NCBI RefSeq assembly: GCF_001677475.2
Contig: NZ_CP015229.1
Direction: 5' to 3' (one strand)
DNA length: 64,000 nucleotides
Source of the DNA: Escherichia coli
Lineage (GTDB): Bacteria; Pseudomonadota; Gammaproteobacteria; Enterobacterales; Enterobacteriaceae
This document shows positions 5,596 through 44,040 of the stretch, one piece after another; the stretch's first letter is position 1; every line of letters begins with the position of its first letter. The notes under the pieces are model-generated. The model was given only the letters and a program-made list of their open reading frames with translations, was not told the origin of the DNA and did not search any database. The translations under genes were made by a program, and so were the position numbers.

Positions 5596-6915
5596 TTAAC
5601 TGCCCCAACGACTTTGCAGATAGCTGACCGCTTGTTGAGTCTGCGGTTTATTCAGATAGTCCTCACGGAACAAGATGGTGCCGCTAATTTCTGGTACCGC
5701 ATCGTTAAGATCGAGCTGCTTTTTCAGTTCCGGTACGCCGCCGTTAATCATCCAGTCTGGCTCTATCTTTGAAGGTTCACCCACTTTATAGAAGGCGATA
5801 CCGATATACAGGCGGGTCCTGGTCGGTTTAACGACATCCGCCCACCATTTTGCCAACACGTCATAACGCGCGGCACTCCGTGAGAACGGCCAGTAAATTT
5901 GGGGAGCAATGTAATCCAGCAATCCTTGTTCCACCCATCGACGGGTGTCAGCGTAGGATTCGTCATAGGCTGCCGCGCCTCGGGTATCGGAACCGAGCGG
6001 ATCGTGTGATCGGTTACGCCACACGCCTGCCGGGCTAACACCAAATTCGACTCCCGGCTTAATGCTTTTAATGGTGTGCGATACCTTTGCAATTAACTGC
6101 TGAGTATTGTTGCGCCGCCAGTCTGCTTTTGACGCAAATGCGCCTCCGTATTTACGGTACGTTTCGTTATCATTTAGCCGTGAACCCGGTGATTCAGTAT
6201 AGAAATAGTCGTCAAACTGCACGCCATCTACCGGATAGCGGGAAACCACTTCCGCGACTATTGATGTGATCCAGTCCTGAACCTCAGGGATGCCCGGGTC
6301 GAGGACAAAGCGATCGCCGGACGTTCTGATCCAGTCGCGGTGTTGCACATAGACGCTCGCCGGTTGTTGAGACAGAGTGCTATTCAGTTCCCTGATAGTA
6401 CCGGGCTTCGTATTAACCGATACGCGATAGGGGTTAAACCAGGCGTGTACTTTCATCCCACGCTTGTGAGCTTCGTCGAGAATAAATTGCAGCGGATCGT
6501 AACCTGGATTTTCACCAATCTTTCCGGTCATAAGATCGGACCACGGCAAAATTTTCGATGGCCACAGGGCGGTACCGTCCGGCTTGACCTGGAAAAAGAC
6601 CGTGTTTATGCCGAGACGTTGCAGATGATCCAGTTTGTCGATCATCGCCTGTTGTTGTACACGTGCCCGGCTGGTGGGGTTACTAATGTTAACCGAGGAA
6701 ACCGGTGGCCAGTCGAGGCGAGACACCGTGGCCAGCCAGATGCCACGCATCGGTTGTGACGATTGTTGCGTCGTGGCTGGTGGCTTCGAACCTGTTGGTG
6801 GTGTCACCATTGACTCTGGGGGCGTGCTTTTGCAACTACACAGTAAAAGTGCCAGTGCAACCAGTACCGCGGGTCTTCTAATCGCTAATTTCTCGTTTCG
6901 GGAGCAGATATCCAT
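5596..6915 (-). CDS. yddW: Lipoprotein glycoside hydrolase YddW/DigH
   Basis: 439-aa ORF with lipoprotein signal (…LLLCSCKS) recognised as E. coli YddW. Confidence 0.85.
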   Translation of the reverse strand: MDICSRNEKLAIRRPAVLVALALLLCSCKSTPPESMVTPPTGSKPPATTQQSSQPMRGIWLATVSRLDWPPVSSVNISNPTSRARVQQQAMIDKLDHLQRLGINTVFFQVKPDGTALWPSKILPWSDLMTGKIGENPGYDPLQFILDEAHKRGMKVHAWFNPYRVSVNTKPGTIRELNSTLSQQPASVYVQHRDWIRTSGDRFVLDPGIPEVQDWITSIVAEVVSRYPVDGVQFDDYFYTESPGSRLNDNETYRKYGGAFASKADWRRNNTQQLIAKVSHTIKSIKPGVEFGVSPAGVWRNRSHDPLGSDTRGAAAYDESYADTRRWVEQGLLDYIAPQIYWPFSRSAARYDVLAKWWADVVKPTRTRLYIGIAFYKVGEPSKIEPDWMINGGVPELKKQLDLNDAVPEISGTILFREDYLNKPQTQQAVSYLQSRWGS

Positions 6916-31711: not shown

Positions 31712-32062
31712 TTAAAGCTGACCGACAGACTTTCTTAACCTGGTAATATCTCTCTTAGGTGACTCTCCAAACATCCGCGAATATTCCCGACTGAAATGGG
31801 ATAAGCTTTCGTAACCGACAGCATAGGCTGCAGTGGTGACATCGTAATGTTCATTCAGCATCGGTCGCCTGGCTTCATTGAGGCGTAGCCATTTCTGATA
31901 CCGGAGTGGACTCATTCCCGCAAGCTGTCTGAAGTGTTGATGGAAAGAGGGGGGTTCATTTGCACGCGGTTTGCCAGCCTGACTCTTCAACGCAGGGAAG
32001 ATGCGGCAAACGGCAAACCTGCATACCAGCCAGCCTATATCCGGTATGCACAGGCTAATCAT
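31712..32062 (-). pseudogene. yneL: AraC-family regulator fragment (HTH domain only)
   Basis: 116-aa ORF carrying only an AraC-type HTH (…LSHFSREYSRMFGESPKRD…) with no sensing domain; corresponds to the yneL remnant that flanks dif in K-12. Confidence 0.6.
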
Positions 32063-32141
32063 GAAAGAGGAGAGGCTTTATGTTCTTGAACCCTGAAGTA
32101 ATAACGACGACCGGAAAATCGCTTCGCATCACTCAAACTCA

Positions 32142-32169
32142 ATTTAACATAATATACATTATGCGCACT
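32142..32169. other. dif-like site, left junction (attL): host-like XerD arm, phage-like XerC arm
   Basis: ATTTAACATAA-TATACA-TTATGCGCACT; 27 of 28 identical to the reverse complement of E. coli dif (GGTGCGCATAATGTATATTATGTTAAAT, recalled); the single mismatch is the outermost base of the XerC arm. Confidence 0.85.
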
Positions 32170-32181
32170 AAGGTGCGCATA
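32160..32181 (+). repeat. 9-bp perfect inverted repeat of the XerC-binding arm
   Basis: TATGCGCAC-TAAG-GTGCGCATA; the left half is the XerC arm of attL, the right half an inverted copy; overlaps a 10-bp palindrome CGCATATGCG (32176..32185). Confidence 0.8.
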
Positions 32182-32202
32182 TGCGTATTCTGGAGGTGTG
32201 TC

Positions 32203-33066
32203 ATGGCTTGTACTCGTCCTTTGAACGCGTACCAAATGCCATCGGGGAAGATTTTTTTCACGCCGTCACGTGGCGCTAAATTCATTCAGTTGCCCTGTGG
32301 TCAGTGCATCGGTTGCCGTCTTGCTCATTCTCGTGACTGGGCGACCCGCTGCGTTCATGAAGCCCACATGCACGATCACAATTGTTTTATCACTCTGACT
32401 TATTCGCCTGAGAATTTACCTGAAGGCGGTACTCTCGTTCGTAAACATTTCACCGATTTTATGAAGCGTTTGCGTAAGGAATTAGATAAGGATGATGTGA
32501 AAATTCGTTATTTTGGCTGTGGTGAATATGGCTCTAAATTAGAGCGACCGCATTATCATGCGATTATTTTTGGTTATGATTTTCCGGATAAGACACTTTA
32601 TAAAGCGGGAAGATTTAATTTATTTAATTCCCCGCTTCTTTCGAGATGTTGGAATCTTGGTTGGGCTGTTATTGCTGGTTTTAGTTTTGAGTCGGCTGCT
32701 TATGTGGCGCGATACTGTGTTAAAAAAATCAACGGTTTCCGTGCAGATGAGCATTATGGACATCGCCTACCCGAGTTTTCGGCTATGAGTAATCGCCCAG
32801 GTATTGGGTATGATTTTTTTATGACCTATTACGAGGATATTGTTAATGCAGATGCGTGTATTGGTCGTGGCGGTCGTCAGATAAAACCGCCCCGCTATTA
32901 TGACAAGTTATTATCAGGCTGTGATTTGGAAAAGTTGCAGCAGAATAAAGAAAAGCGCCAGTTAAATGCCCGTGTATTAGACCCGTGGCGTTTGCAGGAT
33001 TTGGATAAGTTTAATCTGGTTAAATTCCAGCGAATGATGAGGAAATTAGAAGATGGCTCACTCTGA
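32203..33066 (+). CDS. Replication initiation protein (VP4, rolling-circle HUH endonuclease)
   Basis: Track ORF 32080..33066 trimmed to MACTRPLNAYQ… (287 aa) with GGAGG 6 nt upstream. Rolling-circle motifs: FITLTY, HYHAIIF (HUH), AAYVARYCVKK (catalytic Tyr pair), plus CGQCIGC. Confidence 0.9.
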   Translation: MACTRPLNAYQMPSGKIFFTPSRGAKFIQLPCGQCIGCRLAHSRDWATRCVHEAHMHDHNCFITLTYSPENLPEGGTLVRKHFTDFMKRLRKELDKDDVKIRYFGCGEYGSKLERPHYHAIIFGYDFPDKTLYKAGRFNLFNSPLLSRCWNLGWAVIAGFSFESAAYVARYCVKKINGFRADEHYGHRLPEFSAMSNRPGIGYDFFMTYYEDIVNADACIGRGGRQIKPPRYYDKLLSGCDLEKLQQNKEKRQLNARVLDPWRLQDLDKFNLVKFQRMMRKLEDGSL

Positions 33067-33322
33067 TGCAGTTTATGTAATTCATGACAAGCTGATTGCG
33101 GCTGATGTTTTTATGTTTATGGCCCAGCATGATGGTATTGCGAAAGGCAATTTGCACGCGTTCTGTAACCGTATGCAGCGCACTGACTTTGTGCTGTACC
33201 GTGTGACGGCTTATGACTTTGAAGACCAGCAGCTCGTCCCCGTGGACATTGACCGCGTTTATATTTGCACCGCTTTCCCTGCCATGCTGGAGAATGCCCA
33301 AGATGAAATCCTTGAAGCGTAA
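33053..33322 (+). CDS. Small phage protein, VP5-like
   Basis: 89-aa ORF overlapping the VP4 3' end and the VP3 start; assigned by size and position in the gokushovirus gene order, not by motif. Confidence 0.6.
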   Translation: MAHSDAVYVIHDKLIAADVFMFMAQHDGIAKGNLHAFCNRMQRTDFVLYRVTAYDFEDQQLVPVDIDRVYICTAFPAMLENAQDEILEA

Positions 33323-33815
33323 GTTCCATACCCGCTATGACCCGCCGCCGTCGCCCGGCATCGAGTTCAAAGAACCCACGATGACCCAGCAGCATTTCCG
33401 CGATGAGTGCGACATCAACAAGATTGTTGAGCGTGCGATAAGAACGGGAGATACGACAGTCTTTACCAGTGCTCAACGTGCTGATTTCTACGATGCATCT
33501 TCGATTACTGACTACGTGGACGCAATGGCTTTAATTGACGACGTTAACGACGACTTTAACAGCCTGCCGTCCACGATTCGCTCGATGTTTGGTAATAACG
33601 TTAAGCAGTACGTTGAGTGGATGAGTAATCCCGCGAACTGGAATAAAGCCCGTGAGCTTGGATTGTTGAGCGGCGGAGAGGAGTCGGCGACCGAACGCGC
33701 CAGCGTTCGCGAGTCGAGTCCTGCTCCGGCGTCCCCGCGGGAGCGTGAGCGGACTTCGGAGAGTTCCCCGAAGGGGGAGTCGGAGAAGTCTGCGAATAAT
33801 GATGCAGGCTCATGA
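33303..33815 (+). CDS. Internal scaffolding protein, VP3-like
   Basis: ORF 33213..33815; likely start MKSLKRKFHTRYDPPPSPGIEF… (33303, or 33294); acidic Ser/Glu-rich C-terminus. Assigned by position and size. Confidence 0.6.
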   Translation: MKSLKRKFHTRYDPPPSPGIEFKEPTMTQQHFRDECDINKIVERAIRTGDTTVFTSAQRADFYDASSITDYVDAMALIDDVNDDFNSLPSTIRSMFGNNVKQYVEWMSNPANWNKARELGLLSGGEESATERASVRESSPAPASPRERERTSESSPKGESEKSANNDAGS

Positions 33816-33855
33816 GCTGCATGAAAAAAACCTGAAGACGGCTCCGGCCCTTCAG

Positions 33856-33892
33856 CCTGGCACAGTGGCCCTCTTGATGTAACTGTGCCAGG
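33856..33892 (+). repeat. 11-bp perfect stem-loop in the VP3-VP1 intergenic region
   Basis: cctggcacagt-(15 nt)-actgtgccagg. Confidence 0.8.
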
Positions 33893-33904
33893 TGACACCG
33901 AAAC

Positions 33905-33932
33905 TTACAGGCGGCTCCCACGAAGCCTGTAA
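33905..33932 (+). repeat. 8-bp stem-loop in the VP3-VP1 intergenic region
   Basis: ttacaggc-(12 nt)-gcctgtaa. Confidence 0.75.
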
Positions 33933-33992
33933 AAAGGTGTCAGTTTATACAGTAGTTTGTGTAGTATTTAAACAATTCCCTGAGGGGGGTTT

Positions 33993-35705
33993 ATGAGTAA
34001 ATTCGGTCGTAAAGTACCTAGTAATGCAAAAAGTCAGCATAATTTTTCAGTAATCCCGAGTGCCAATATTCAGCGTTCGGTCTTTAACCGCAGCTCTGGT
34101 TATAAAACCACTTTTGACGCTGGTTATTTGATTCCCGTGTTTCTGGATGAGGCTTTGCCGGGTGATACATTCCACCTGAAAACGTCCATACTGGCGCGTT
34201 TATCCACGCCAGTGGTGCCGTTTATGGATAACCTGCGACTGGACATCCAGTATTTTTCCGTGCCCTACCGTCTGGTCTGGGATAACTGGCAGAAATTCAA
34301 CGGTGAACAGAAGAATCCTGGCGATTCGACGGATTACCTTATTCCGCAGATTAAAGCCCCTGCTGGCGGCTTCCCTGTAGGCTCCCTTGCCGATTATTTT
34401 GGTGTTCCCACAGGTGTGGAGAATATCAGTGTAAGCGCCCTGCCGTTCCGCGCTTATAACCTGATTTATAACGAGTGGTATCGTGATGAAAACCTGATTA
34501 ATTCCGCCCCGCTTCCGCTTGGCGATGAGGAAGAAACAGGCCTCGCCAATTTCCCGCTGCGTAAGCGTGCCAAGCGTCACGATTACTTCACAAGTGCTCT
34601 GCCGTGGCCTCAGAAGGGTGAAGGCGTTGAGATTGGTTTAGGCGTTCCGCCGTCGTATACGCTCGATTTCCCGACCTATCCTGATGGTCTGCCGTTTGTT
34701 TCTTATGGCGTTGGTGTCGATGGAGATATGACTTCGCACAATCCGACTTATCTTGCCCGTAATAATGTTAACGAAGGCTCATCATACGAGGCCTATGGTA
34801 ATGCGGTTTATATGAGTGACGGCAGGAATCCCAGCAATCCGCTGGAATGGCCTCCTATGTCGCCCTCCACTGGACGTATTGATGTTATTGGTGGTTTTAG
34901 CAGAAACCAGCCTCCGGTTACGTTAAATAAGCAAGGTGGTGAAGTTGTCGATAATCTGACAATTAACTCGCTGCGTCAGGCGTTCCAGCTTCAGCGGCTG
35001 CTTGAGCGCGATGCTCGCGGTGGTACTCGCTATATTGAGATTATCCGCTCCCACTTTGGCGTTATTTCGCCTGATGCCCGTGTACAGCGTCCCGAGTATC
35101 TCGGCTCTGGTTCATTCGACATAAATATTAATCCTGTTCTTCAAAACTCCGCGACGACCGACGCAAGTCCGCAAGGCAACCTCGCGGCCTATGGTGTCTC
35201 CGGTGGTGTTAACCGTGGATTTTCTCATTCTTTTGTGGAGCACTGTTTTGTTATTGGCCTTGTTAGCGTTCGTGCTGACCTGACCTACCAGCAAGGCATC
35301 CCGCGCATGTTCTCCCGCCAGACCCGCTTTGATTTCTACTGGCCTGCACTGGCTCACCTGGGCGAACAGGCTATCCTTAACAAGGAGATTTACGCGCAAG
35401 GCAACGACAAGGATGATGAAGTATTTGGCTACCAGGAACGTTACGCGGAGTACCGCTACCGACCGTCTCAGATTACTGGTAAATTGCGTTCTACCGACCC
35501 GCAATCCCTCGATGTGTGGCATTTAGCCCAGCGGTTCGACTCTCTGCCCGCACTGAATCAGGAGTTTATCGAGGAGAATCCACCGATGAAGCGCGTCCTC
35601 GCCGTACAGGACGAGCCTCAGTTCATCATGGATGCGTTCTTCGACCTGAAGTGTGTGCGGCCTATGCCTGTTTACTCAGTACCAGGTCTTATCGATCATT
35701 TCTAA
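33993..35705 (+). CDS. Major capsid protein (VP1, Microviridae F-protein family)
   Basis: 570-aa ORF MSKFGRKVPSNAKSQHNFSVIPSANIQRSVFNRSSGYKTTFDAGYLIPVFLDEALPGDTF…, closely resembling the conserved N-terminal block of gokushovirus VP1 (recalled Chlamydia-phage pattern …IQRS.F.RS.G.KTTFDAGYLIP…PGDTF…); RBS GAGGGGGG. Confidence 0.9.
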   Translation: MSKFGRKVPSNAKSQHNFSVIPSANIQRSVFNRSSGYKTTFDAGYLIPVFLDEALPGDTFHLKTSILARLSTPVVPFMDNLRLDIQYFSVPYRLVWDNWQKFNGEQKNPGDSTDYLIPQIKAPAGGFPVGSLADYFGVPTGVENISVSALPFRAYNLIYNEWYRDENLINSAPLPLGDEEETGLANFPLRKRAKRHDYFTSALPWPQKGEGVEIGLGVPPSYTLDFPTYPDGLPFVSYGVGVDGDMTSHNPTYLARNNVNEGSSYEAYGNAVYMSDGRNPSNPLEWPPMSPSTGRIDVIGGFSRNQPPVTLNKQGGEVVDNLTINSLRQAFQLQRLLERDARGGTRYIEIIRSHFGVISPDARVQRPEYLGSGSFDININPVLQNSATTDASPQGNLAAYGVSGGVNRGFSHSFVEHCFVIGLVSVRADLTYQQGIPRMFSRQTRFDFYWPALAHLGEQAILNKEIYAQGNDKDDEVFGYQERYAEYRYRPSQITGKLRSTDPQSLDVWHLAQRFDSLPALNQEFIEENPPMKRVLAVQDEPQFIMDAFFDLKCVRPMPVYSVPGLIDHF

Positions 35706-35722
35706 GTTACATTGTCACTTTT

Positions 35723-35745
35723 GGCCTCTGCGGAGGCCTTTTTTT
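35723..35745 (+). terminator. Intrinsic terminator/attenuator after the capsid gene
   Basis: ggcctc-tgcg-gaggcc followed by TTTTTTT. Confidence 0.7.
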
Positions 35746-35759
35746 CATGAGGTGAAATT

Positions 35760-36542
35760 ATGGGCTTTTTATCATCTGCCATTGGTGCCGCTGGTTCTAT
35801 TGCCGGCTCCCTGCTTGGTGCGAACTCTGCGAAGGATTCAGCTAACCGTGCCAATAAGTTAACGATGGATTTGGCCAAAAACGGCATCCAGTACCGTGTG
35901 CAGGATTTACGGAAAGCTGGCCTTAACCCCATTCTGGCCGTTACTGGTTCCGGTGGTCTTGGTTCCGTCAGTTCGTCAGGTATTCAGGCCGCCCAGCCTG
36001 CCGATTTTTCTGGTGTGGTTAATTCTGCGGTCAGCGTATTTGACGCATTAACGAAGCGTCAGCAGCAGGAAGTCGCTAAGGAAGGCATCATGTCCCAGAT
36101 TGCGTTACAACGTAACCAGATTGCGAATAGCGCGGCTGATGTGAAGCTCAAAGAGGCTCAGGCTGCGCAAGCCTTATCTTCCATTTCTACTGGTAATGCC
36201 CAGACTAATTTGATTAATCAGCAGGCTTTGACCGAGGCTTCCCGCCGTGCCAATATTGAAGCACAGACGGGCCTTAGTTCTGCGCAGCGGATTAGAACAC
36301 AGTATCAAACTGTACAGGACAAGGTTTTGGCTGATTATTTGAATACACCGATTGGAGCTGAAAGTGCACGTGTCAATATGGATGCTTCTCGCGGTGGTAT
36401 CGTTGGCGGCGTTAATACTTTTCTGCGTTCTTTGCAACGTGATTACCCGTCTAACTCGAACTCTGCGAAGAAAGTAAACAAGGGGGGAACCTTCCCCCCT
36501 TCACAGTTCCAACAGCAATTGATTAATAACTATCGGAGGTAA
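35760..36542 (+). CDS. Minor capsid / DNA pilot protein (VP2-like)
   Basis: 260-aa ORF with Gly/Ala/Ser-rich N-terminus (MGFLSSAIGAAGSIAGSLLGANSA…) and Gln/Ala-rich predicted coiled region; RBS GAGGTG; position after VP1. Confidence 0.7.
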   Translation: MGFLSSAIGAAGSIAGSLLGANSAKDSANRANKLTMDLAKNGIQYRVQDLRKAGLNPILAVTGSGGLGSVSSSGIQAAQPADFSGVVNSAVSVFDALTKRQQQEVAKEGIMSQIALQRNQIANSAADVKLKEAQAAQALSSISTGNAQTNLINQQALTEASRRANIEAQTGLSSAQRIRTQYQTVQDKVLADYLNTPIGAESARVNMDASRGGIVGGVNTFLRSLQRDYPSNSNSAKKVNKGGTFPPSQFQQQLINNYRR

Positions 36543-36543
36543 T

Positions 36544-36663
36544 ATGGCTCGTTCTCGCCGTCGTATGTCCAAGCGTTCTTCCCGTCGTTCGTTCCGTAAG
36601 TACGCAAAGACGCATAAACGTAACTTTAAAGCCCGCTCTATGCGTGGTGGAATTCGTCTTTGA
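36544..36663 (+). CDS. Small basic DNA-binding protein (VP8 / J-like), absent from the ORF track
   Basis: ATG at 36544, stop TGA 36661..36663; translation MARSRRRMSKRSSRRSFRKYAKTHKRNFKARSMRGGIRL (39 aa, roughly 40% Arg/Lys). Confidence 0.7.
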   Translation: MARSRRRMSKRSSRRSFRKYAKTHKRNFKARSMRGGIRL

Positions 36664-36693
36664 TTGACAAAGTTGATCGTAACGATCTATGAT
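36664..36693 (+). promoter_or_regulatory. Putative sigma70 promoter at the prophage right end
   Basis: TTGACA (36664..36669), 18-bp spacer, TATGAT (36688..36693); the spacer contains GATCGTAACGATC with two GATC sites. Pattern match only. Confidence 0.35.
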
Positions 36694-36716
36694 AATTATC
36701 GTAAGTCGTTGTTTTT

Positions 36717-36744
36717 GTTAAACTAAATATACATTATGCGCACC
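36717..36744. other. dif-like site, right junction (attR): phage-like degenerate XerD arm, host-like XerC arm
   Basis: GTTAAACTAAA-TATACA-TTATGCGCACC; XerD arm 7 of 11, central region 6 of 6, XerC arm 11 of 11 versus dif. Confidence 0.8.
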
Positions 36745-36820: not shown

Positions 36821-38143
36821 TTACTTAATACCGTATTCTCGGCTTAACCGACGGTGCAACCTCAACACATTGGTTTCAACTGCCGTCACCACGTTCTTCG
36901 GAAAATCTGTCGGTAATGAAGTCTTCACGTTATCCAGTGCTGCCGGAATCATTCTGGCAAAGTCACTCAGGATTTCATGCATCTGCACTTCCGGAAATTT
37001 CAGCACCTTTGCTGTCGCCAGAAAATGTCGCGGATAAATTTTATCGATTGCCGTTTTTTTGCCTTTGGATGAGTTAAGCCCCATTGCCAGTTTGAGATCG
37101 CTAATGTGTATTCCTGCGCCACCCAATACCGGAAATGCTGAAATGATGTCGTAAAATGGCGTGAGTCGATAACTGCCGCCAGCCTGAATAAATACGGAGA
37201 AGTTTTTTGCATGGCCATCCGTTGCGCCAATCAACCACTGGAACACCTGAAACTTCATAAAATCATAGCGATCTTTCAGCGCCTCGCTGGACCCCATCAA
37301 AAAAGCCATGATCCGCGCGATACCTGGGCCTCCATCTGATTCATATTTCACCGATGAAGGTAAACCGAATGTCTGACACATATCCTCCTGTGGCAAGCGA
37401 AGTAAAACCGTTCGCTCAGCATTCCAACGCCTGTCAAAACGTTCGACCGCTAACGCACGCACATTTCCCGCTTTAATGATTTCTGCGTCCGGCACATTCA
37501 ACCCAAGTTCTTTCGCCAGCAGCAGACAGTAATACTCATTATCAACGCTTTGGCTGAGATCGAGCGTCGCATTGGGCTGCCTGATTTCGCCAATCGGTAA
37601 TTTAATGATGTGTGTCGTCGGCGTTATTCCTTTCGGAATGCACCAGTCATTGCCTATTCTGAGCAGCGCTGTCTTCTCCTGCGCGCCAGCAACCGAGATG
37701 CGAAAGTCATTTTCTTCTCTAATCATGCCTAGAGGGATATCTGCTTTATAAGCCGTTAATACTTCTTCAAGCCTGGCTTCAGTGAGCTGCTCCCATGCCA
37801 TTATCGGGCGCGTTATGGTTTCATTTTCGGGTAATAACGTTACGGCACCAACGCTGTCTCGCCCTATTTCTGACAATAAATCAAACGGTTGTCTGGATTT
37901 AGCATGATAACGTTTAACGATCCGGTCACGTACAATCGGGCTATCGGGTAGCAGGTTATCGAAGAAGTTAAATACGGCATCAGAGGTGATATTCCCCCTC
38001 TGCAATGGCAGCGAAAGTGACAACGGTCTGGCATAACGGTTAGCTAACCACTCCGGTGCATACTTAAAGGTGTGCGCGCCATTGGCTAACTTCGTTAACT
38101 CGCCTACCCGCTGGTTGTTCATCCAAGTGACAAGTTTAGGCAT
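36821..38143 (-). CDS. hipA: Ser/Thr kinase toxin HipA
   Basis: ORF 36821..38200 trimmed to MPKLVTWMNNQRVGELTKLANGAHTFKYAPEWL… (440 aa); start overlaps the hipB stop by 1 nt. Confidence 0.92.
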   Translation of the reverse strand: MPKLVTWMNNQRVGELTKLANGAHTFKYAPEWLANRYARPLSLSLPLQRGNITSDAVFNFFDNLLPDSPIVRDRIVKRYHAKSRQPFDLLSEIGRDSVGAVTLLPENETITRPIMAWEQLTEARLEEVLTAYKADIPLGMIREENDFRISVAGAQEKTALLRIGNDWCIPKGITPTTHIIKLPIGEIRQPNATLDLSQSVDNEYYCLLLAKELGLNVPDAEIIKAGNVRALAVERFDRRWNAERTVLLRLPQEDMCQTFGLPSSVKYESDGGPGIARIMAFLMGSSEALKDRYDFMKFQVFQWLIGATDGHAKNFSVFIQAGGSYRLTPFYDIISAFPVLGGAGIHISDLKLAMGLNSSKGKKTAIDKIYPRHFLATAKVLKFPEVQMHEILSDFARMIPAALDNVKTSLPTDFPKNVVTAVETNVLRLHRRLSREYGIK

Positions 38144-38619: not shown

Positions 38620-41600
38620 TTACCAGCTATATTTAACACCCAGCATGCCCTGAGTATCGCTATAGCCTTTATCACCTAGTTGCACACCGACATTCCCCCA
38701 CAGGCTAAGGTTGTTATTTACTTTCGCCTCAACCCCGGTACGTACTTCACCGAGATTACGCGCACCATCACGGCTTACGGTTTGACCATTCATCTTCACG
38801 GCGTAGACTTTGCTGTTGTTGATCCAGTTCGCTTCAATGTAAGGCTGGAACTCACGCTGTTTACCATTGTCACGCTGGTGATGACTGTTCAGGTAGGTTT
38901 TCACCCCAAGCCGCGTTTGCACGTTTCCGTCACCTTCCGTTTCAATGCGTGTTCCGTCTTTCCGGGTATGGTCAGAATTTTTCACACCCATCCAGGTGAT
39001 TTGCACCTGTGGCTGGACGTACCAGGTATTCAGCGTCCCTTCGCTGCCGCTAAATATTCCCGCTTCAAAGGTATACCCACCCTCAACAGAGGCCGTCAGA
39101 CCGCGAGAATCATAGTCGTCAGCAGAACGGTTATCGGAACTGACGCTGTTATCAAACCAGTTATACAGCGCCCAGCTGTCAACATAAGCGCCGGTCTTAT
39201 TCGCATCGTTCTGATACCAGGTCGCGTAAATCCCAGCGCTGTACCCGCTGATGCGCCCATCCGATTTATAACCCACACGATTACTCTGAGTATTACTGTG
39301 CTGATTGGCATAGCCTGCCATAATGCCGAGGTGCCAGCGATCCTGCGCGTTGCTACTCCACTGCGCCAAATCGCCGCCTAGATGCAATACATAGCGGTTA
39401 GCCTGAGTATTTAGCTGACCGTCACCGGTCCTGAAACGTTCGTGCCCCCCGACATGACGCATCCACATACTGCTTGCTGCACCCTGAGAATGCAGTGAAT
39501 CTGCATACTGTGGCTCACCCAGACGGTCGTGTAAGCGATGGCTAAACAGCGAGTTAGCTGCGGCAATGTTGCTGATATAGCTTCCGGCCTCCGGGCGATA
39601 AACTGATGGGCCTTCCGGATCCACAACAGGGGGATTATTAATGGGATCGGGTGTATCCGGTGGCGTTACGCCGTCCCATTTACTGGTCAGATACCAGTTT
39701 TTCTCGTCATTCCCCTTCCCTTTAGCCAGCGTGTAGACGTATGCCCCAGCTTCGACAGTTCCGGTGGTCAGCGCGAAGTTACCTGCAGAATTACCGCCAA
39801 CCTCAATGAGTTCAATACCGTTGACCGTATGTGCACCGACGCCGCCAATGTTATCAACCCGAACGCGAGTGCTTCCTTGTGTATCGCCTTTCACGTTCAT
39901 CTTATCGGTGGGCGAATTATCGCCGCCCAGCGTCGCGTTGAACGTTATCAGGCCATTGTTTCCGGTATCGTTGCCGTTAACGGTCAGTACATTCCCCGGT
40001 TTTCCTCCTTCACTATTCATTTGAACCGTGCCGCCATTCTCCAGATTGCCGCCGATAGTGGTTTTGGCGACACGCAGTGTCCCCCCAGACATAACGTTCA
40101 CATCACCTGCAGTGGTGACATTTCCCGACATCACACCGCTGTTGTGGATATTAATGTGCTGACTTGCCATATTAATGGCAGAGTCGGAACCGAAAGCAAT
40201 TTCACCACCCACGATATCCGTCGTACCCTTATACGTCGCGGAATCGTTGTTAAGAGTCAGGATCCCGGTCCCCAGTTTTGTCACATCACCGCTACCGCTG
40301 ATACTGTGCGTCATCGCCCAGCTACGCTCAGTGGAGATGGTGAGCAGGCCATTATTGATAACGGAAGCATCACCCAGGTTTTTCTGCTCGTTGACGCTGA
40401 GCGCGCTACCTGCATCGATGTTGAATTGCCCCACAAAGCGGCTATTATCGCCATCCAGCTCTACATCTGTCCTGGCGGTTGCGCTCACGATACCCTTCCC
40501 GCTTATGCTATTACGCAGTTCGCCAGTCACGTTTTTTAGCGTTAACAGACCGTCATTGGCAATATTTCCTCTGCCTAACCCCTGCGTATTATCGAGGCTG
40601 ACTTCCGCATTTGGGCTAACGCTGGTTAACGCATTGTAGCGTGCATTAAGCCCCTCGATAGCCAGCGTTCCCCCTGTAACATTCAGATTACCGCCACCTG
40701 TCAGTTCACCCTGACTGATCCCACCTTTATTTACCGTCAGCGCCCCCTCTTTGAACAAAACAGTCGAACCCATCTGCCCGGTGAATGTCTCTACCGTCTG
40801 CGTCGATCCATTAAGATCGACGATGGCCGCGTTGCGGATGTTCAGTTCCCGGGTGTTGCCCAGCGCGCCATCCGCATCGGTACGTAATGTCCCCATCTGA
40901 ACATAGGTTGCCCCCTGATAGTCGTTCTGACCGTTGGAAAGCGAAACCTGTCGCACCGTATTGATTGCCAGATCCCCTTCACCACCGATTTTTGCCGACA
41001 TATCGGCCGTTGCGCCATAGGCTCCGCCATGTTCGGCTAACGTCAGCTTTTGCCCACCATGGATGTTCAGCGCTTTCAGCCCATAGTTAACATACAAACC
41101 ATCACCAGGTACGGTCGTGAGGCGGAATCCATAATCACCCTCGGCGACCACTGTTCCGTTTTGTGCAATGTGTAACGTTTTGTCCGCTTCCACCTCGTCG
41201 CCCTGTAAATCACGTAACGTTAATGAGCCACCCGACCCAATAACCGTTTGCGCCTTCACCAGTTGAACGCCGACATGGCTATCATCGTGTTCCAGCAAAT
41301 TGAGCGTCGTCAGAGGGTTATTCGCCATGGGATCATTCCACGGTTTAGGCACGTCGATAAGCACGTCGCCCGTCCCGTTTACCTGATAGTTACGGCCTTT
41401 CCAGGTGTAGTCACCCGCGCCGACAACCAGCGTATCGACGCTGATATATCCCTCCGCAAGCGTCGCAGCAGGTATATCCGTATCGAAAGTGAGCGTACCG
41501 CCATTCATGGCTAGTCCACCAATGGATTGCTCTCCCACTTTTACCGATGTGGTATTTTCACTGTCAGACTGAAGCATCGCGTGAGTAAGCGCAGCGGTGT

Positions 41601-44040
41601 TGTCGCGTTCCAGTGTGAAGGTACTGTCTTTCAGTTGGGCAACACCGGCGAATTCAGTTCCTGTTGCATGGGTAAAGCCAAACATTTTGTCGGAGGATGA
41701 CAGCTGCACTCGCATCAAGCCATCGCCTTTGAGCGCATTGGTCAGCGTGTAATCTCCTGCGCTGTTCGTTGATGCGAGAATGTCTAGCGTACCGGGGCTT
41801 GCAATGGTTACTTCACTCGAACCCATGCCTGTTACCCCATCTGCCGTATGTGACGCAATAGTCAGGAGGCCGTCATTGACCAGCGTTTTACCGCTATAAG
41901 TATTCCCTGCATTGAACACCGTATGGCCTGCATCATGCATCACTTTTCCGCCTTTATCGTCACCCGTAATCAGCATATCGACCTGGTAGCCGGCATCACT
42001 GTTATTAGTATGATTAAAGACAAAAACGCCTTCGCCATGACCAAACTCTACTTTCGTCGCGTTGGTGATAAATCCGGCATCTGCCGCCGCCTCACCGTGA
42101 GCAGCACCAATGTTTAGCGTTCCTACAGCAGGATCAAAAAGACCTAAGTAAACTTCGCCACCCTCAACATTTAGCGTGCCGTTATTCGTCAGGGTTAACG
42201 TACCCGTGCCAGTCGTCCCTACGTTCATATTGAATGTTTCAAGAAGAGAGTTCTGCCCATCCACCCTCACGTCGCCCTTACTTTTGTCATTGAGAGCTAT
42301 CTGTGTATCACGCGCTTTAACTATACCTCCGGTGGTAATATTCAGTTCACCCGAGCCTAATACACCGACCTGTAGCAATTGGGCGTTATTAGAAGACGTC
42401 TTTAAATTCCAAAGACTATCCGTTGAAATATTAACTATTCCCTTACCGGGGGAATTTCCTCCGATAAATCCATAGCCCGTTGAATTAAGTGTGGCACCAT
42501 TACTGACATTTACGATACCGCTACCAAAATTACCGACATTGATACCCACAGTATCGAACGATGATGTCGCATCCATCAGGTTCAGTGTGCCGATACTGCT
42601 TGCTTTATCGCCCAAAAAAGTAATATTTTGCGATACGAACTTACCGCCATCGCTAATATTGAGGTTTCCGACGCCCGCAACACCAATGGTGGTATAGACA
42701 TTCTTATTGACCTCCCATATCCCCCCCGTGGTGATGCTAACCTTCCCGACGCCGGTTTCGCCATAACCGAGTGAGCTTCCTCCGTTGCTGACAACAAGCC
42801 CCTCATTACTGATATTCATTTCGCCGTGGCCGTCATAACCAAGATTAGTTCCGAGATTAGTGATAACGGAGTTCTTATCCTTAACAGTAATGTTGCCAGT
42901 GCCTGTTTCTTTCATCCCCGCAGTGATAATTCCCGAATCTACTTTACCTGCACGCGAGACATTAAGTTCACCGTCGCCAGCATCACCGATATAGATATAG
43001 CGGAAAGCTTCGCCTGTTCCGAGGAAATTCCAATGCCCTTTATCGGTCACGTTGACGACACCGTGGGAACCGTCCTGAACGCCCACCAATGAATATTCTT
43101 TGTTATTAATTAGTCCATTATTGGAAATATTGACTGTGCCATTACCGAAATATCCATTATAGAGTCTGCGTACCGTGATGACAGAGTCTTGATCCTGCAC
43201 ATTCAGGGTTCCGATACCGGTAGCATTGCCACCGATAATCGTATTTTCAGCCGTAATCAGCCCACCCTCGCGAATAGTCGCTTCTCCCGTCCCTTGATTA
43301 CCAATTTGAAATTCAATTGAGGAGTCGTTATTTTTTATTAGCCACTCACCGCCCTTTTCAACGACAACCTGGCCATTACTGCCCGTCTGATAGCCTAAAA
43401 TGGCGACGATTGAACTCGTGACATAACCCTTATCTGTAATATTTAATGAACCTGTGCCATAGCTACCTATTTCGAATAACTCCGTCGTCAGAACCGAGTC
43501 CTCTCCCTCAACATTAATCATCCCGACGCCTGCAGCTTGAGTACCTAATCTTAAATAGCCTCCATCAACGTGACCTTTCTGTTTAATATTCAGCGTCCCC
43601 GTTCCGGATTGACCCACATTTAAAGGCCTTGCATTATTTCCGCTATCATACAATCGCCAGGTGCCACCCAAAACATTAACGGTGCCCTCTGAGTCCTCAT
43701 TAGCGCCAATGACACTGGTAGTAATAGTGGTTAAGGAGGCATTTCCGCCAGCCAAAATATTAAGCACTCCAGTGCCATACCAGCCAACCAGATAGGCATC
43801 ATAAGCAACATCAGTATCAATATTGGTAATCAGACCATTATCAACTTCAAGACTTGCACCAGACGCTGAACCGCTTAGTGCCAGCAAAACACCCAGCGTC
43901 AATCTACTGAATTTCGTTGTCAGCCCAGAGGATTTATGTAAATTAACCGTCGATGTTTTACCTACCCTGAGAGTTAATTCCGAGCAGACCTGAAATACCT
44001 GTAGGGTGCAATTCCATATCACGCGATAGATTCTATTCAT
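38620..44040 (-). CDS. Large AIDA-I-type autotransporter adhesin, intact
   Basis: 1806-aa ORF with extended signal peptide MNRIYRVIWNCTLQVFQVCSEL…, long Gly/Thr/Asn-rich repeat passenger, and C-terminal β-barrel ending …GMLGVKYSW; recalled as fragmented (yneO/ydeK/ydeU) in K-12. Confidence 0.85.
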   Translation of the reverse strand: MNRIYRVIWNCTLQVFQVCSELTLRVGKTSTVNLHKSSGLTTKFSRLTLGVLLALSGSASGASLEVDNGLITNIDTDVAYDAYLVGWYGTGVLNILAGGNASLTTITTSVIGANEDSEGTVNVLGGTWRLYDSGNNARPLNVGQSGTGTLNIKQKGHVDGGYLRLGTQAAGVGMINVEGEDSVLTTELFEIGSYGTGSLNITDKGYVTSSIVAILGYQTGSNGQVVVEKGGEWLIKNNDSSIEFQIGNQGTGEATIREGGLITAENTIIGGNATGIGTLNVQDQDSVITVRRLYNGYFGNGTVNISNNGLINNKEYSLVGVQDGSHGVVNVTDKGHWNFLGTGEAFRYIYIGDAGDGELNVSRAGKVDSGIITAGMKETGTGNITVKDKNSVITNLGTNLGYDGHGEMNISNEGLVVSNGGSSLGYGETGVGKVSITTGGIWEVNKNVYTTIGVAGVGNLNISDGGKFVSQNITFLGDKASSIGTLNLMDATSSFDTVGINVGNFGSGIVNVSNGATLNSTGYGFIGGNSPGKGIVNISTDSLWNLKTSSNNAQLLQVGVLGSGELNITTGGIVKARDTQIALNDKSKGDVRVDGQNSLLETFNMNVGTTGTGTLTLTNNGTLNVEGGEVYLGLFDPAVGTLNIGAAHGEAAADAGFITNATKVEFGHGEGVFVFNHTNNSDAGYQVDMLITGDDKGGKVMHDAGHTVFNAGNTYSGKTLVNDGLLTIASHTADGVTGMGSSEVTIASPGTLDILASTNSAGDYTLTNALKGDGLMRVQLSSSDKMFGFTHATGTEFAGVAQLKDSTFTLERDNTAALTHAMLQSDSENTTSVKVGEQSIGGLAMNGGTLTFDTDIPAATLAEGYISVDTLVVGAGDYTWKGRNYQVNGTGDVLIDVPKPWNDPMANNPLTTLNLLEHDDSHVGVQLVKAQTVIGSGGSLTLRDLQGDEVEADKTLHIAQNGTVVAEGDYGFRLTTVPGDGLYVNYGLKALNIHGGQKLTLAEHGGAYGATADMSAKIGGEGDLAINTVRQVSLSNGQNDYQGATYVQMGTLRTDADGALGNTRELNIRNAAIVDLNGSTQTVETFTGQMGSTVLFKEGALTVNKGGISQGELTGGGNLNVTGGTLAIEGLNARYNALTSVSPNAEVSLDNTQGLGRGNIANDGLLTLKNVTGELRNSISGKGIVSATARTDVELDGDNSRFVGQFNIDAGSALSVNEQKNLGDASVINNGLLTISTERSWAMTHSISGSGDVTKLGTGILTLNNDSATYKGTTDIVGGEIAFGSDSAINMASQHINIHNSGVMSGNVTTAGDVNVMSGGTLRVAKTTIGGNLENGGTVQMNSEGGKPGNVLTVNGNDTGNNGLITFNATLGGDNSPTDKMNVKGDTQGSTRVRVDNIGGVGAHTVNGIELIEVGGNSAGNFALTTGTVEAGAYVYTLAKGKGNDEKNWYLTSKWDGVTPPDTPDPINNPPVVDPEGPSVYRPEAGSYISNIAAANSLFSHRLHDRLGEPQYADSLHSQGAASSMWMRHVGGHERFRTGDGQLNTQANRYVLHLGGDLAQWSSNAQDRWHLGIMAGYANQHSNTQSNRVGYKSDGRISGYSAGIYATWYQNDANKTGAYVDSWALYNWFDNSVSSDNRSADDYDSRGLTASVEGGYTFEAGIFSGSEGTLNTWYVQPQVQITWMGVKNSDHTRKDGTRIETEGDGNVQTRLGVKTYLNSHHQRDNGKQREFQPYIEANWINNSKVYAVKMNGQTVSRDGARNLGEVRTGVEAKVNNNLSLWGNVGVQLGDKGYSDTQGMLGVKYSW

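Follow-up and report, generated by a model that had tools for sequence, protein, structure and literature searches.

The stretch of DNA analysed here (64,000 nucleotides of Escherichia coli, hereafter the window) carries a compact block of phage-like genes at the chromosomal dif site, and the locus raises the question of what this element is, how it entered the chromosome, and whether it can still leave and complete an infectious cycle. We identify it, with little room for doubt, as a temperate gokushovirus residing in the chromosome as an intact prophage; within the genus Enterogokushovirus (Microviridae) it belongs to clade H of Kirchberger & Ochman 2020. It represents no new kind of element, having already been catalogued and tested in that work (eLife 9:e51599; PMC7062461); a sequence-only reading that preceded our analysis had presented it as biologically unusual, which was overstated, as the genus is published and the exact prophage stands in a table of the same paper. 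The block and its host flanks are as follows:

32142-36744, + strand: prophage block, six genes in the order VP4-VP5-VP3-VP1-VP2-VP8 (open reading frame list)
31712..32062, - strand: yneL pseudogene, remnant of an AraC-type HTH regulator, left host flank (open reading frame list, PGAP, Pfam)
36821..38143, - strand: hipA toxin gene (440 aa), followed by hipB, right host flank (open reading frame list; PGAP and Pfam of homologous loci)

Gene content of the block

The six genes and the other elements found within the block are these:

32203-33066, + strand: VP4, HUH rolling-circle replication initiator, 287 aa (phrog_942, E=8e-112; Pfam REP_ORF2-G2P, PF23343, E=1e-21)
33053-33322, + strand: VP5, small non-structural protein, 89 aa (Pfam Phage_ORF5, E=1e-4)
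33303-33815, + strand: VP3, internal scaffolding protein, 170 aa (Pfam Chlamy_scaf, PF09675, E=2e-34; phrog_1642, E=1.5e-37)
33816..33992, + strand: VP3-VP1 intergenic region, three stable stem-loops predicted by DNA folding of the single strand
33993-35705, + strand: VP1, major capsid protein, 570 aa (Pfam Phage_F, PF02305, E=2e-184; phrog_514, E=3e-217)
35723..35745, + strand: terminator-like GC hairpin and T-run after VP1 (fold z = -3.65)
35760-36542, + strand: VP2, DNA pilot or minor capsid protein, 260 aa (phrog_8693, 'pilot protein for DNA ejection', E=2e-17)
36544-36663, + strand: VP8, putative DNA-binding protein rich in Arg and Lys, 39 aa (phrog_10695, E=1.6e-10)

The sequence-only reading had described six Microviridae-type genes on one strand, lodged between the yneL remnant and hipA; all six lie where it placed them and their family matches agree, as do the open reading frame, PGAP and Pfam evidence for the flanks. 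On the left, the stretch homologous to the remnant carries the PGAP label 'helix-turn-helix domain-containing protein, incomplete, missing N-terminus', and Pfam HTH_AraC/HTH_18 matches the gene called there in a related locus (L011). The circle measures 4575 nt, of which the six genes fill 92.4%, and falls inside the range of enterogokushovirus genomes (4316-4692 bp; PMC7062461); gene order and size are those expected of an Enterogokushovirus (4.3-4.7 kb). In the profile searches VP1 fell in the Phage_F capsid family, VP4 among the HUH Reps, VP3 among scaffolds of the Chlamydia-phage type and VP2 among pilot proteins, and the comparison of VP1 and VP4 with Microviridae families that had been proposed as a check gave the Phage_F and phrog_942 matches listed above. 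Neither the six genes nor ten antisense or alternative-frame open reading frames on both strands matched a recombinase, integrase or transposase (PHROG for all, Pfam for the six products), as had been claimed, and the ten alternative frames gave no PHROG match of any kind. The phiX-type external scaffold D and spike G are probably absent, since no room is left for them and there were no hits.

The Rep protein VP4 contains the three motifs singled out beforehand, FITLTY (residues 62-67), HYHAIIF (117-123) and YVARYCVKK (167-175), in line with a rolling-circle Rep that has motif 1, an HUH motif and a Y-x-x-x-Y motif; it is 90.6% identical over its full length to VP4 of Escherichia phage EC6098, and a PDB sequence search with it found no solved relative. 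Its reading frame is open upstream as far as 32080, and the best-supported start, preceded by GGAGG and in agreement with the one that PGAP picks in relatives, is the ATG at 32203 rather than the first ATG of the frame at 32080 inside host DNA. VP5 is 82% identical to vp5 of EC6098 and 96.6% identical to its counterparts in three related E. coli loci (L003-L005). In VP3, the alignment places the variability in the C-terminal ~22 residues. The intergenic region that follows folds with z = -5.6, equalled by none of 200 shuffles (0/200), is almost invariant across eight genomes and is near-identical in EC6098. A covariation test on these eight genomes, whose sequences are too similar, yielded no compensatory pairs, so the support for the hairpins is that of folding energy; we regard the region as a candidate complementary-strand origin or other cis element. 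An Rfam scan of the whole window returned no RNA family at gathering score.

Among the structural proteins, VP1 matches the EC6098 capsid structure (PDB 8des) over residues 1-570 with E=0, and its conservation profile shows a gokushovirus-type hypervariable loop at about residues 226-312 with invariant flanks on either side. VP8 is 100% identical to vp8 of EC6098, and 17 of its 39 residues are Arg or Lys, in keeping with its earlier description. VP2 has no Pfam match and is 76.5% identical to VP2 of EC6098, with a variable stretch towards its C-terminus (about residues 192-245); its pilot-like character was correctly recognised from sequence, but it is Gly/Ala-rich only moderately (23% Gly+Ala). 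The hypervariable regions of VP2 and superinfection exclusion are reportedly the topic of a PNAS paper of 2021.

Attachment sites and the route of integration

Three features at the ends of the block bear on how it was inserted (att sites are given in the + strand reading):

32142-32169: attL, dif site, ATTTAACATAA-TATACA-TTATGCGCACT, 27/28 to the reverse complement of E. coli dif
36717-36744: attR, dif-like site, GTTAAACTAAA-TATACA-TTATGCGCACC, 24/28 to dif
32160..32181, + strand: hairpin with a 9-bp stem and 4-nt loop, in which the XerC arm pairs with its own inverted copy (TATGCGCAC-TAAG-GTGCGCATA)

The flanking dif-like 28-mers reported in the sequence-only reading are direct repeats 4575 bp apart, and shuffles of the window contain no dif match of the grade of attL. 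The arms of both sites are hybrid, as recombination between attP and dif predicts: attL has the canonical XerD arm and spacer and an XerC arm that ends in T like that of the phage attP, and attR has the degenerate phage XerD arm (7/11), the identical spacer and the canonical host XerC arm. The reconstructed attP, GTTAAACTAAA-TATACA-TTATGCGCACT, is a single 28-mer (XerD arm 7/11, spacer 6/6, XerC arm 10/11) and equals positions 2-29 of EC6098. Five independent E. coli prophages repeat the hybrid pattern, and a sixth (L008) has the same attL and a more degenerate attR. Supplementary file 1 of PMC7062461 lists the attL sequence under 'bacterial dif-site' and, for clade H, the reverse complement of attR, GGTGCGCATAATGTATATTTAGTTTAAC, under 'phage dif-site'. 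Comparison with an empty locus, as had been suggested, found 28/28 of dif between the same flanks in E. coli VCSW5. The GC-skew profile of the 64-kb window is too noisy at such length to show the terminus, so the identity of the dif site rests on sequence and synteny.

Could the arrangement instead have arisen in assembly or by contamination, say through the joining of a microvirus contig to reads from the chromosome? We found no point in favour of such an artefact. At least ten public contigs have identical junctions, 6 of 5426 complete E. coli genomes carry relatives, once each and always at this locus, and the att sites are hybrid in the predicted way; we give this explanation practically no weight. 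A route other than recombination of a double-stranded attP with dif by XerC and XerD, either from folded single-stranded DNA as in CTX-phi or by a recombinase acting in trans, has somewhat more to recommend it, since the XerC-arm hairpin adjoins attP and PMC7062461 leaves the exact mechanism, including the order of strand exchange, to be elucidated. However, the hairpin is present in EC6098 and in L003, L004 and L007 and absent in L005, L006 and L008, which are prophages at the same dif, and attP is a single site with a fully matching spacer rather than two inverted sites. The phage EC6098, whose attP is identical, does not integrate in delta-xerC or delta-xerD hosts or when either attP arm is missing, and its integration is reversible (PMC7062461), unlike that of CTX-phi as described in PMC6744903. 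We therefore rate a different route as very improbable, and reject the hairpin as a CTX-phi-like folded site: it is just a duplicated XerC arm, and lineage-specific. Xer-mediated integration in the IMEX mode, as the sequence-only reading had proposed and as was already published, is supported by the exact insertion at dif and by the EC6098 experiments on the same attP.

Integrity and proposed life cycle

The block and its flanks are 100% identical over 8713 bp to contig NJSK01000007 of E. coli MOD1-EC2703, whose prophage, entered as leaf 76 of clade H in Supplementary file 1 (PMC7062461), shows no detectable difference from it; MOD1-EC2703 and E. coli 06-00048 (CP015229) both belong to clade H and O36:H14 and share the same dif pair (PMC7062461). 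In MOD1-EC2703 cultures PCR revealed circular genomes, so that the head-to-tail PCR suggested for this locus has in effect been done on an identical prophage, with a positive result, yet neither the synthesised phage nor the native culture yielded plaques on E. coli K-12 (PMC7062461). This combination is what a cryptic remnant would give, one that is no longer infectious and that Xer still excises, and PMC7062461 does not separate host range from a defect as the basis of the missing plaques. Such a remnant nevertheless seems improbable to us, as all six reading frames are full-length and their products align end to end with those of the viable EC6098 at 76-100% identity, and the same sequence recurs with zero changes in independent assemblies. 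The divergence from EC6098 clusters in the loop of VP1 and at the C-terminal end of VP2, regions variable among all relatives, a pattern that fits differences in host range or exclusion better than decay. The earlier claim of an intact element thus holds, and the suggestion that it is inducible went too far: what is described is continuous, Xer-driven excision and re-integration, with no plaques on K-12 (PMC7062461).

For an intact prophage, the following life cycle may be proposed, in which Xer dependence, reversibility and virion production are carried over by analogy from EC6098. The virion would hold a 4575-nt circular single-stranded DNA, which after infection would be converted to a double-stranded replicative form with one dif-like attP between VP8 and VP4. 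Host XerC and XerD would join attP to the chromosomal dif by recombination across the 6-bp spacer, which is identical in both, leaving two hybrid sites, attL as a functional dif and attR with a weak XerD arm. Chromosome-dimer resolution would be kept because attL is a functional dif, and because both sites remain the same enzymes could excise the circle. After excision, the HUH Rep (VP4) would drive rolling-circle replication, and VP1, VP2, VP3 and VP8 would build and fill T=1 capsids. The parallels in EC6098 are that its lysogens continually excise and re-integrate the phage, that EM has shown it to have the tailless T=1 virion with circular ssDNA expected of the genus, and that virion release is far lower from integrated lysogens than from cells carrying the circle in non-integrated form (PMC7062461).

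How lysogeny might be maintained is a further question, and to our knowledge no repressor or induction circuit has been described for such a phage. One feature near the right end invites a suggestion:

36664-36693, + strand: best sigma-70-like promoter match, TTGACA-18-TATGAT, 11/12 positions

No other site in the block reaches 11/12, a score also attained in 44 of 1000 shuffles. In the circle the site is just upstream of attP and points at VP4, and in the prophage it is cut off from all phage genes. From this layout one might imagine lysogeny by promoter uncoupling, in which integration would strip the phage genes of their putative main promoter, leaving it to read across attR toward the 3' end of hipA, and XerCD excision would restore expression. 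If true, this would explain the far lower virion release of integrated lysogens with no need for a phage regulator. We hold it to be unlikely: the site is not conserved in L005, L006, L008 or L009, and its absence from L005, L006, L008 and mar4 weakens the idea.

The discovery of temperate gokushoviruses in E. coli, an advance of 2020, altered the strictly lytic view of Microviridae and supplied a tractable model for a phage group that is among the most abundant in gut viromes. Within that setting, the present block is useful as a clean worked example, in which the hybrid att sites are exact, the clade-H genome is intact and the relation to other clades is mosaic.

Comparison with known systems

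The closest characterised phage is EC6098 (MT185428 / NC_048874), to which the block is about 92% identical in nucleotide sequence over 90% of its length by megablast and 87.8% identical in one gapped alignment. Clades in PMC7062461 were set at >95% identity, and 92% therefore places the two in the same genus and in different clades. They share the same six genes in the same order, an identical attP 28-mer, an identical VP8, VP4 and VP1 proteins of about 90% identity, and an insertion at dif that leaves the same pair of hybrid sites. They differ in the VP1 loop and VP2 C-terminal region, in clade and host (clade E in E. marmotae for EC6098, clade H in E. coli for the block), and in that the clade-H phage gave no plaques on K-12.

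Other elements that use host Xer recombinases resemble the block in part. It has the features of an IMEX, with no integrase of its own, exact insertion at dif, and dif and dif-like flanks in direct repeat. As in TLC-phi-type IMEX and gonococcal genetic islands (Midonet et al. [quoted passage not shown] Strand exchange of the TLC-phi type is XerD-first and FtsK-independent. The attP layout fits, but we reject membership of the TLC-phi type, as a Pfam scan of all six products found no XafT or DUF3653-like Xer activator; the elements there are a filamentous satellite phage or an island, whereas here the element is a microvirus. CTX-phi, a filamentous phage of Vibrio cholerae, is likewise a single-stranded DNA phage with an HUH Rep that integrates at dif through host XerCD. 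According to PMC3442271 and PMC6744903, it integrates irreversibly from folded single-stranded DNA by exchange of one strand pair. In this type attP is built from two inverted sites and XerC alone carries out the exchange; assignment of the block to it was rejected on account of the single duplex-type 28-mer of attP and the reversible integration of EC6098 (PMC7062461). The Alpavirinae proviruses of Bacteroidetes are also chromosome-integrated genomes related to Microviridae, for which Xer-type integration has been hypothesised (Krupovic & Forterre 2011, PMC3091885); they belong to another subfamily and another host phylum.

Gene content and relatives of the element

The sequence-only reading had described six same-strand genes of Microviridae type between a yneL remnant and hipA, with particular Rep motifs, and both the ORFs and the motif residues were located as it described them. 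The genes, which occupy 92.4% of the 4575-nt circle (32170-36744) of the gokushovirus-type element, are as follows.

Genes of the element
32203-33066, + strand, VP4 (Rep), 287 aa ORF
33053-33322, + strand, VP5, 89 aa ORF
33303-33815, + strand, VP3, 170 aa ORF
33993-35705, + strand, VP1, 570 aa ORF
35760-36542, + strand, VP2, 260 aa ORF
36544-36663, + strand, VP8, 39 aa ORF

The Rep motifs of VP4 are FITLTY (residues 62-67), HYHAIIF (117-123), and YVARYCVKK (167-175). The proposed kinship of VP1 and VP4 with Microviridae is upheld by several searches: VP4 falls in the PHROGs replication initiation family (E=8e-112) and VP1 in the major head protein family (E=3e-217), VP1 is a Phage_F protein in Pfam (E=2e-184), and VP1 matches the solved capsid (8des) of EC6098, a cultivated Escherichia phage, across its full length (E=0). 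PHROGs also places VP3 in a virion structural family (E=1.5e-37), VP2 under 'pilot protein for DNA ejection' (E=2e-17), and VP8 in a small function-unassigned family; Pfam assigns VP4 to REP_ORF2-G2P, VP3 to Chlamy_scaf, and VP5 to Phage_ORF5, with no match for VP2 or VP8. Proteins identical to VP1 (annotated as capsid), VP4 (rolling-circle Rep), and VP2 (pilot protein) are already in NCBI. The six genes and ten alternative ORFs on both strands include no integrase, transposase, or other recombinase, in agreement with the earlier claim.

The VP4 frame is open upstream from 32080, through the left dif site and into host DNA, which is why some gene callers report a 328-aa host-phage chimera (for example, in comparison locus L011). 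We place the start at ATG 32203, which is preceded by GGAGG and is the start chosen by PGAP in relatives; in the EC6098 GenBank record, the vp4 start is an ATG within the dif motif.

In a phage collection search, the element is 91.9% identical to EC6098 (Gokushovirinae, Enterogokushovirus) across 90% of its length. The six genes and their order are shared with EC6098, whose annotation includes a 'dif-motif', and all six proteins align end to end with their EC6098 counterparts, with identities of 100% (VP8), 90.6% (VP4), 90.5% (VP1), 88.5% (VP3, aligned part), 82% (VP5), and 76.5% (VP2). Most of the divergence falls within about residues 226-312 of VP1 and about residues 192-245 of VP2; Kirchberger & Ochman 2020 (PMC7062461) name three variable regions, and these are two of them. 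Because the nearest relative differs gene by gene (VP4, 96.5% to L006; VP5, 96.6% to L003-L005; VP1, 90.5% to EC6098; VP2, 85% to L004; the L numbers denote comparison loci), the protein comparisons point to recombination among enterogokushovirus clades and a mosaic history. Residues 149-170, the C-terminal tail of VP3, do not resemble those of the other loci compared. The VP2 coding region contains a G/C-rich 9-bp palindrome without mismatches, AAGGGGGGAACCTTCCCCCCTT, at 36480-36501 (residues KGGTFPPS), and from this point onward the VP2 C-terminus of loci L006 and L007 reads quite differently.

Hybrid dif sites at the insertion

A scan of the window for E. coli dif, tolerating as many as 3 mismatches, gave a single match, at 32142-32169, with one mismatch; shuffled controls gave none. 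A repeat finder located a second copy of this left dif 4575 bp downstream, so that direct dif-like 28-mers do flank the block, as had been noted.

Sites flanking the element (XerD arm / spacer / XerC arm)
32142-32169, attL, ATTTAACATAA / TATACA / TTATGCGCACT, 27/28 to dif
36717-36744, attR, GTTAAACTAAA / TATACA / TTATGCGCACC, 24/28 to dif

Both are hybrid sites: attL has an XerD arm of canonical host type and an XerC arm ending in T, whereas in attR the XerD arm is degenerate and the XerC arm, which ends in C, is canonical. When the XerD arm and spacer of attR are joined to the XerC arm of attL, they reconstruct the phage site of the circle, attP (GTTAAACTAAATATACATTATGCGCACT), which is identical to nucleotides 2-29 of circular EC6098 and matches dif at 6/6 spacer, 10/11 XerC arm, and 7/11 XerD arm positions. 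The empty locus, a comparison proposed earlier, is found in VCSW5, a genome without the block, in which the flanks seen in the window enclose a perfect dif (28/28). Related blocks occur in 6 of 5426 complete E. coli genomes, each time as one chromosomal copy with the same fimbrial/yneL remnant on one side and hipA on the other. Five independent E. coli prophages repeat the hybrid pattern; a sixth, that of E. coli C5 (L008), has the same attL and a more degenerate attR. The hybrid sites are the signature of a crossover between phage attP and host dif, within or beside the shared spacer.

A more degenerate attP, TTTGACATAAC TTTACA TTATGCGCACC, is common to Microvirus mar4 from marmot faeces (MZ089750, L009, 2753-2813) and the C5 prophage (L008, about 5990-6020). 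It has a TTGACA hexamer inside its XerD arm and was missed by a dif search with 6 mismatches.

Cis features and host flanks

The element has a single sigma-70-like site that scores 11/12 or better, TTGACA-18-TATGAT (11/12; 36664-36693, + strand; -10 hexamer at 36688-36693), between the VP8 stop and attR. It points towards VP4 in the circle and towards the hipA 3' end in the prophage; since it lies a short way upstream of attP, all the phage genes are separated from it on integration. 'Promoter uncoupling' by integration at this predicted site is improbable, because the site is absent from four related genomes (L005, L006, L008, and L009). At 32160-32181, the attL XerC arm is followed immediately by its inverted copy, forming a 9-bp hairpin (TATGCGCAC-TAAG-GTGCGCATA) that is shared with EC6098, L003, L004, and L007, is not found in L005, L006, or L008, and is lineage-specific. 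The VP3-VP1 intergenic region (33816-33992, + strand) forms three stable stem-loops as ssDNA (z = -5.6) and is nearly invariant in eight enterogokushovirus genomes, whose neighbouring genes vary; these eight show no compensatory changes or covariation in the stem-loops. It may act as an origin for the complementary strand or as some other cis element.

Host DNA is at best 98.4-98.6% identical (1-32141) and 97.6% identical (39001-64000) to any of the 5426 complete genomes, so the host lineage is not represented among them. An identical locus is found in MOD1-EC2703 (O36:H14). A 1806-aa autotransporter (38620-44040, - strand; ECSE_1600 family by annotation in relatives) adjoins hipBA; at least one relative (L003) has a frameshifted copy.

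Published behaviour and other Xer users

A 2020 study (Kirchberger & Ochman, PMC7062461) already described the biology of this prophage and had this very element in its set. Two public contigs are 100% identical to the window along 8713 bp that take in both flanks. One of the two, NJSK01000007 from E. coli MOD1-EC2703, appears as leaf 76, clade H, in Supplementary file 1 of that study; clade H also includes E. coli 06-00048 (CP015229, O36:H14), and the 'bacterial' and 'phage' dif sequences in that file match those read in the window. The study describes 95 prophages of this kind from Enterobacteriaceae; dif motifs flank every one of them, and not one carries an integrase. EC6098 did not integrate in delta-xerC or delta-xerD hosts, nor did mutants of it in which one or the other arm of the phage motif was missing, and lysogens showed continued phage excision and re-integration, at about 4:1 integrated to empty (PMC7062461). 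The head-to-tail PCR suggested for circles had been done on this element, with a positive result: the four strains tested included MOD1-EC2703, and circular genomes were detected in its culture. Neither a synthesised circle nor the native culture of the MOD1-EC2703 phage gave plaques on K-12 (PMC7062461). The word 'inducible' in the sequence-only reading had no known regulator behind it.

The XerC/XerD route proposed earlier is supported by the hybrid sites, by the identity of the reconstructed attP with that of EC6098, and by the xer-mutant results (PMC7062461). A temperate microvirus that borrows host XerC/XerD is the best explanation of the element, as published, and the same study itself calls the strand-exchange mechanism unresolved. 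No XafT/DUF3653-like domain turned up in the six proteins, and we therefore do not class the element as TLC-type. The anatomy of its attP is closer to TLC-phi and the gonococcal islands (PMC6744903) than to CTX-phi.
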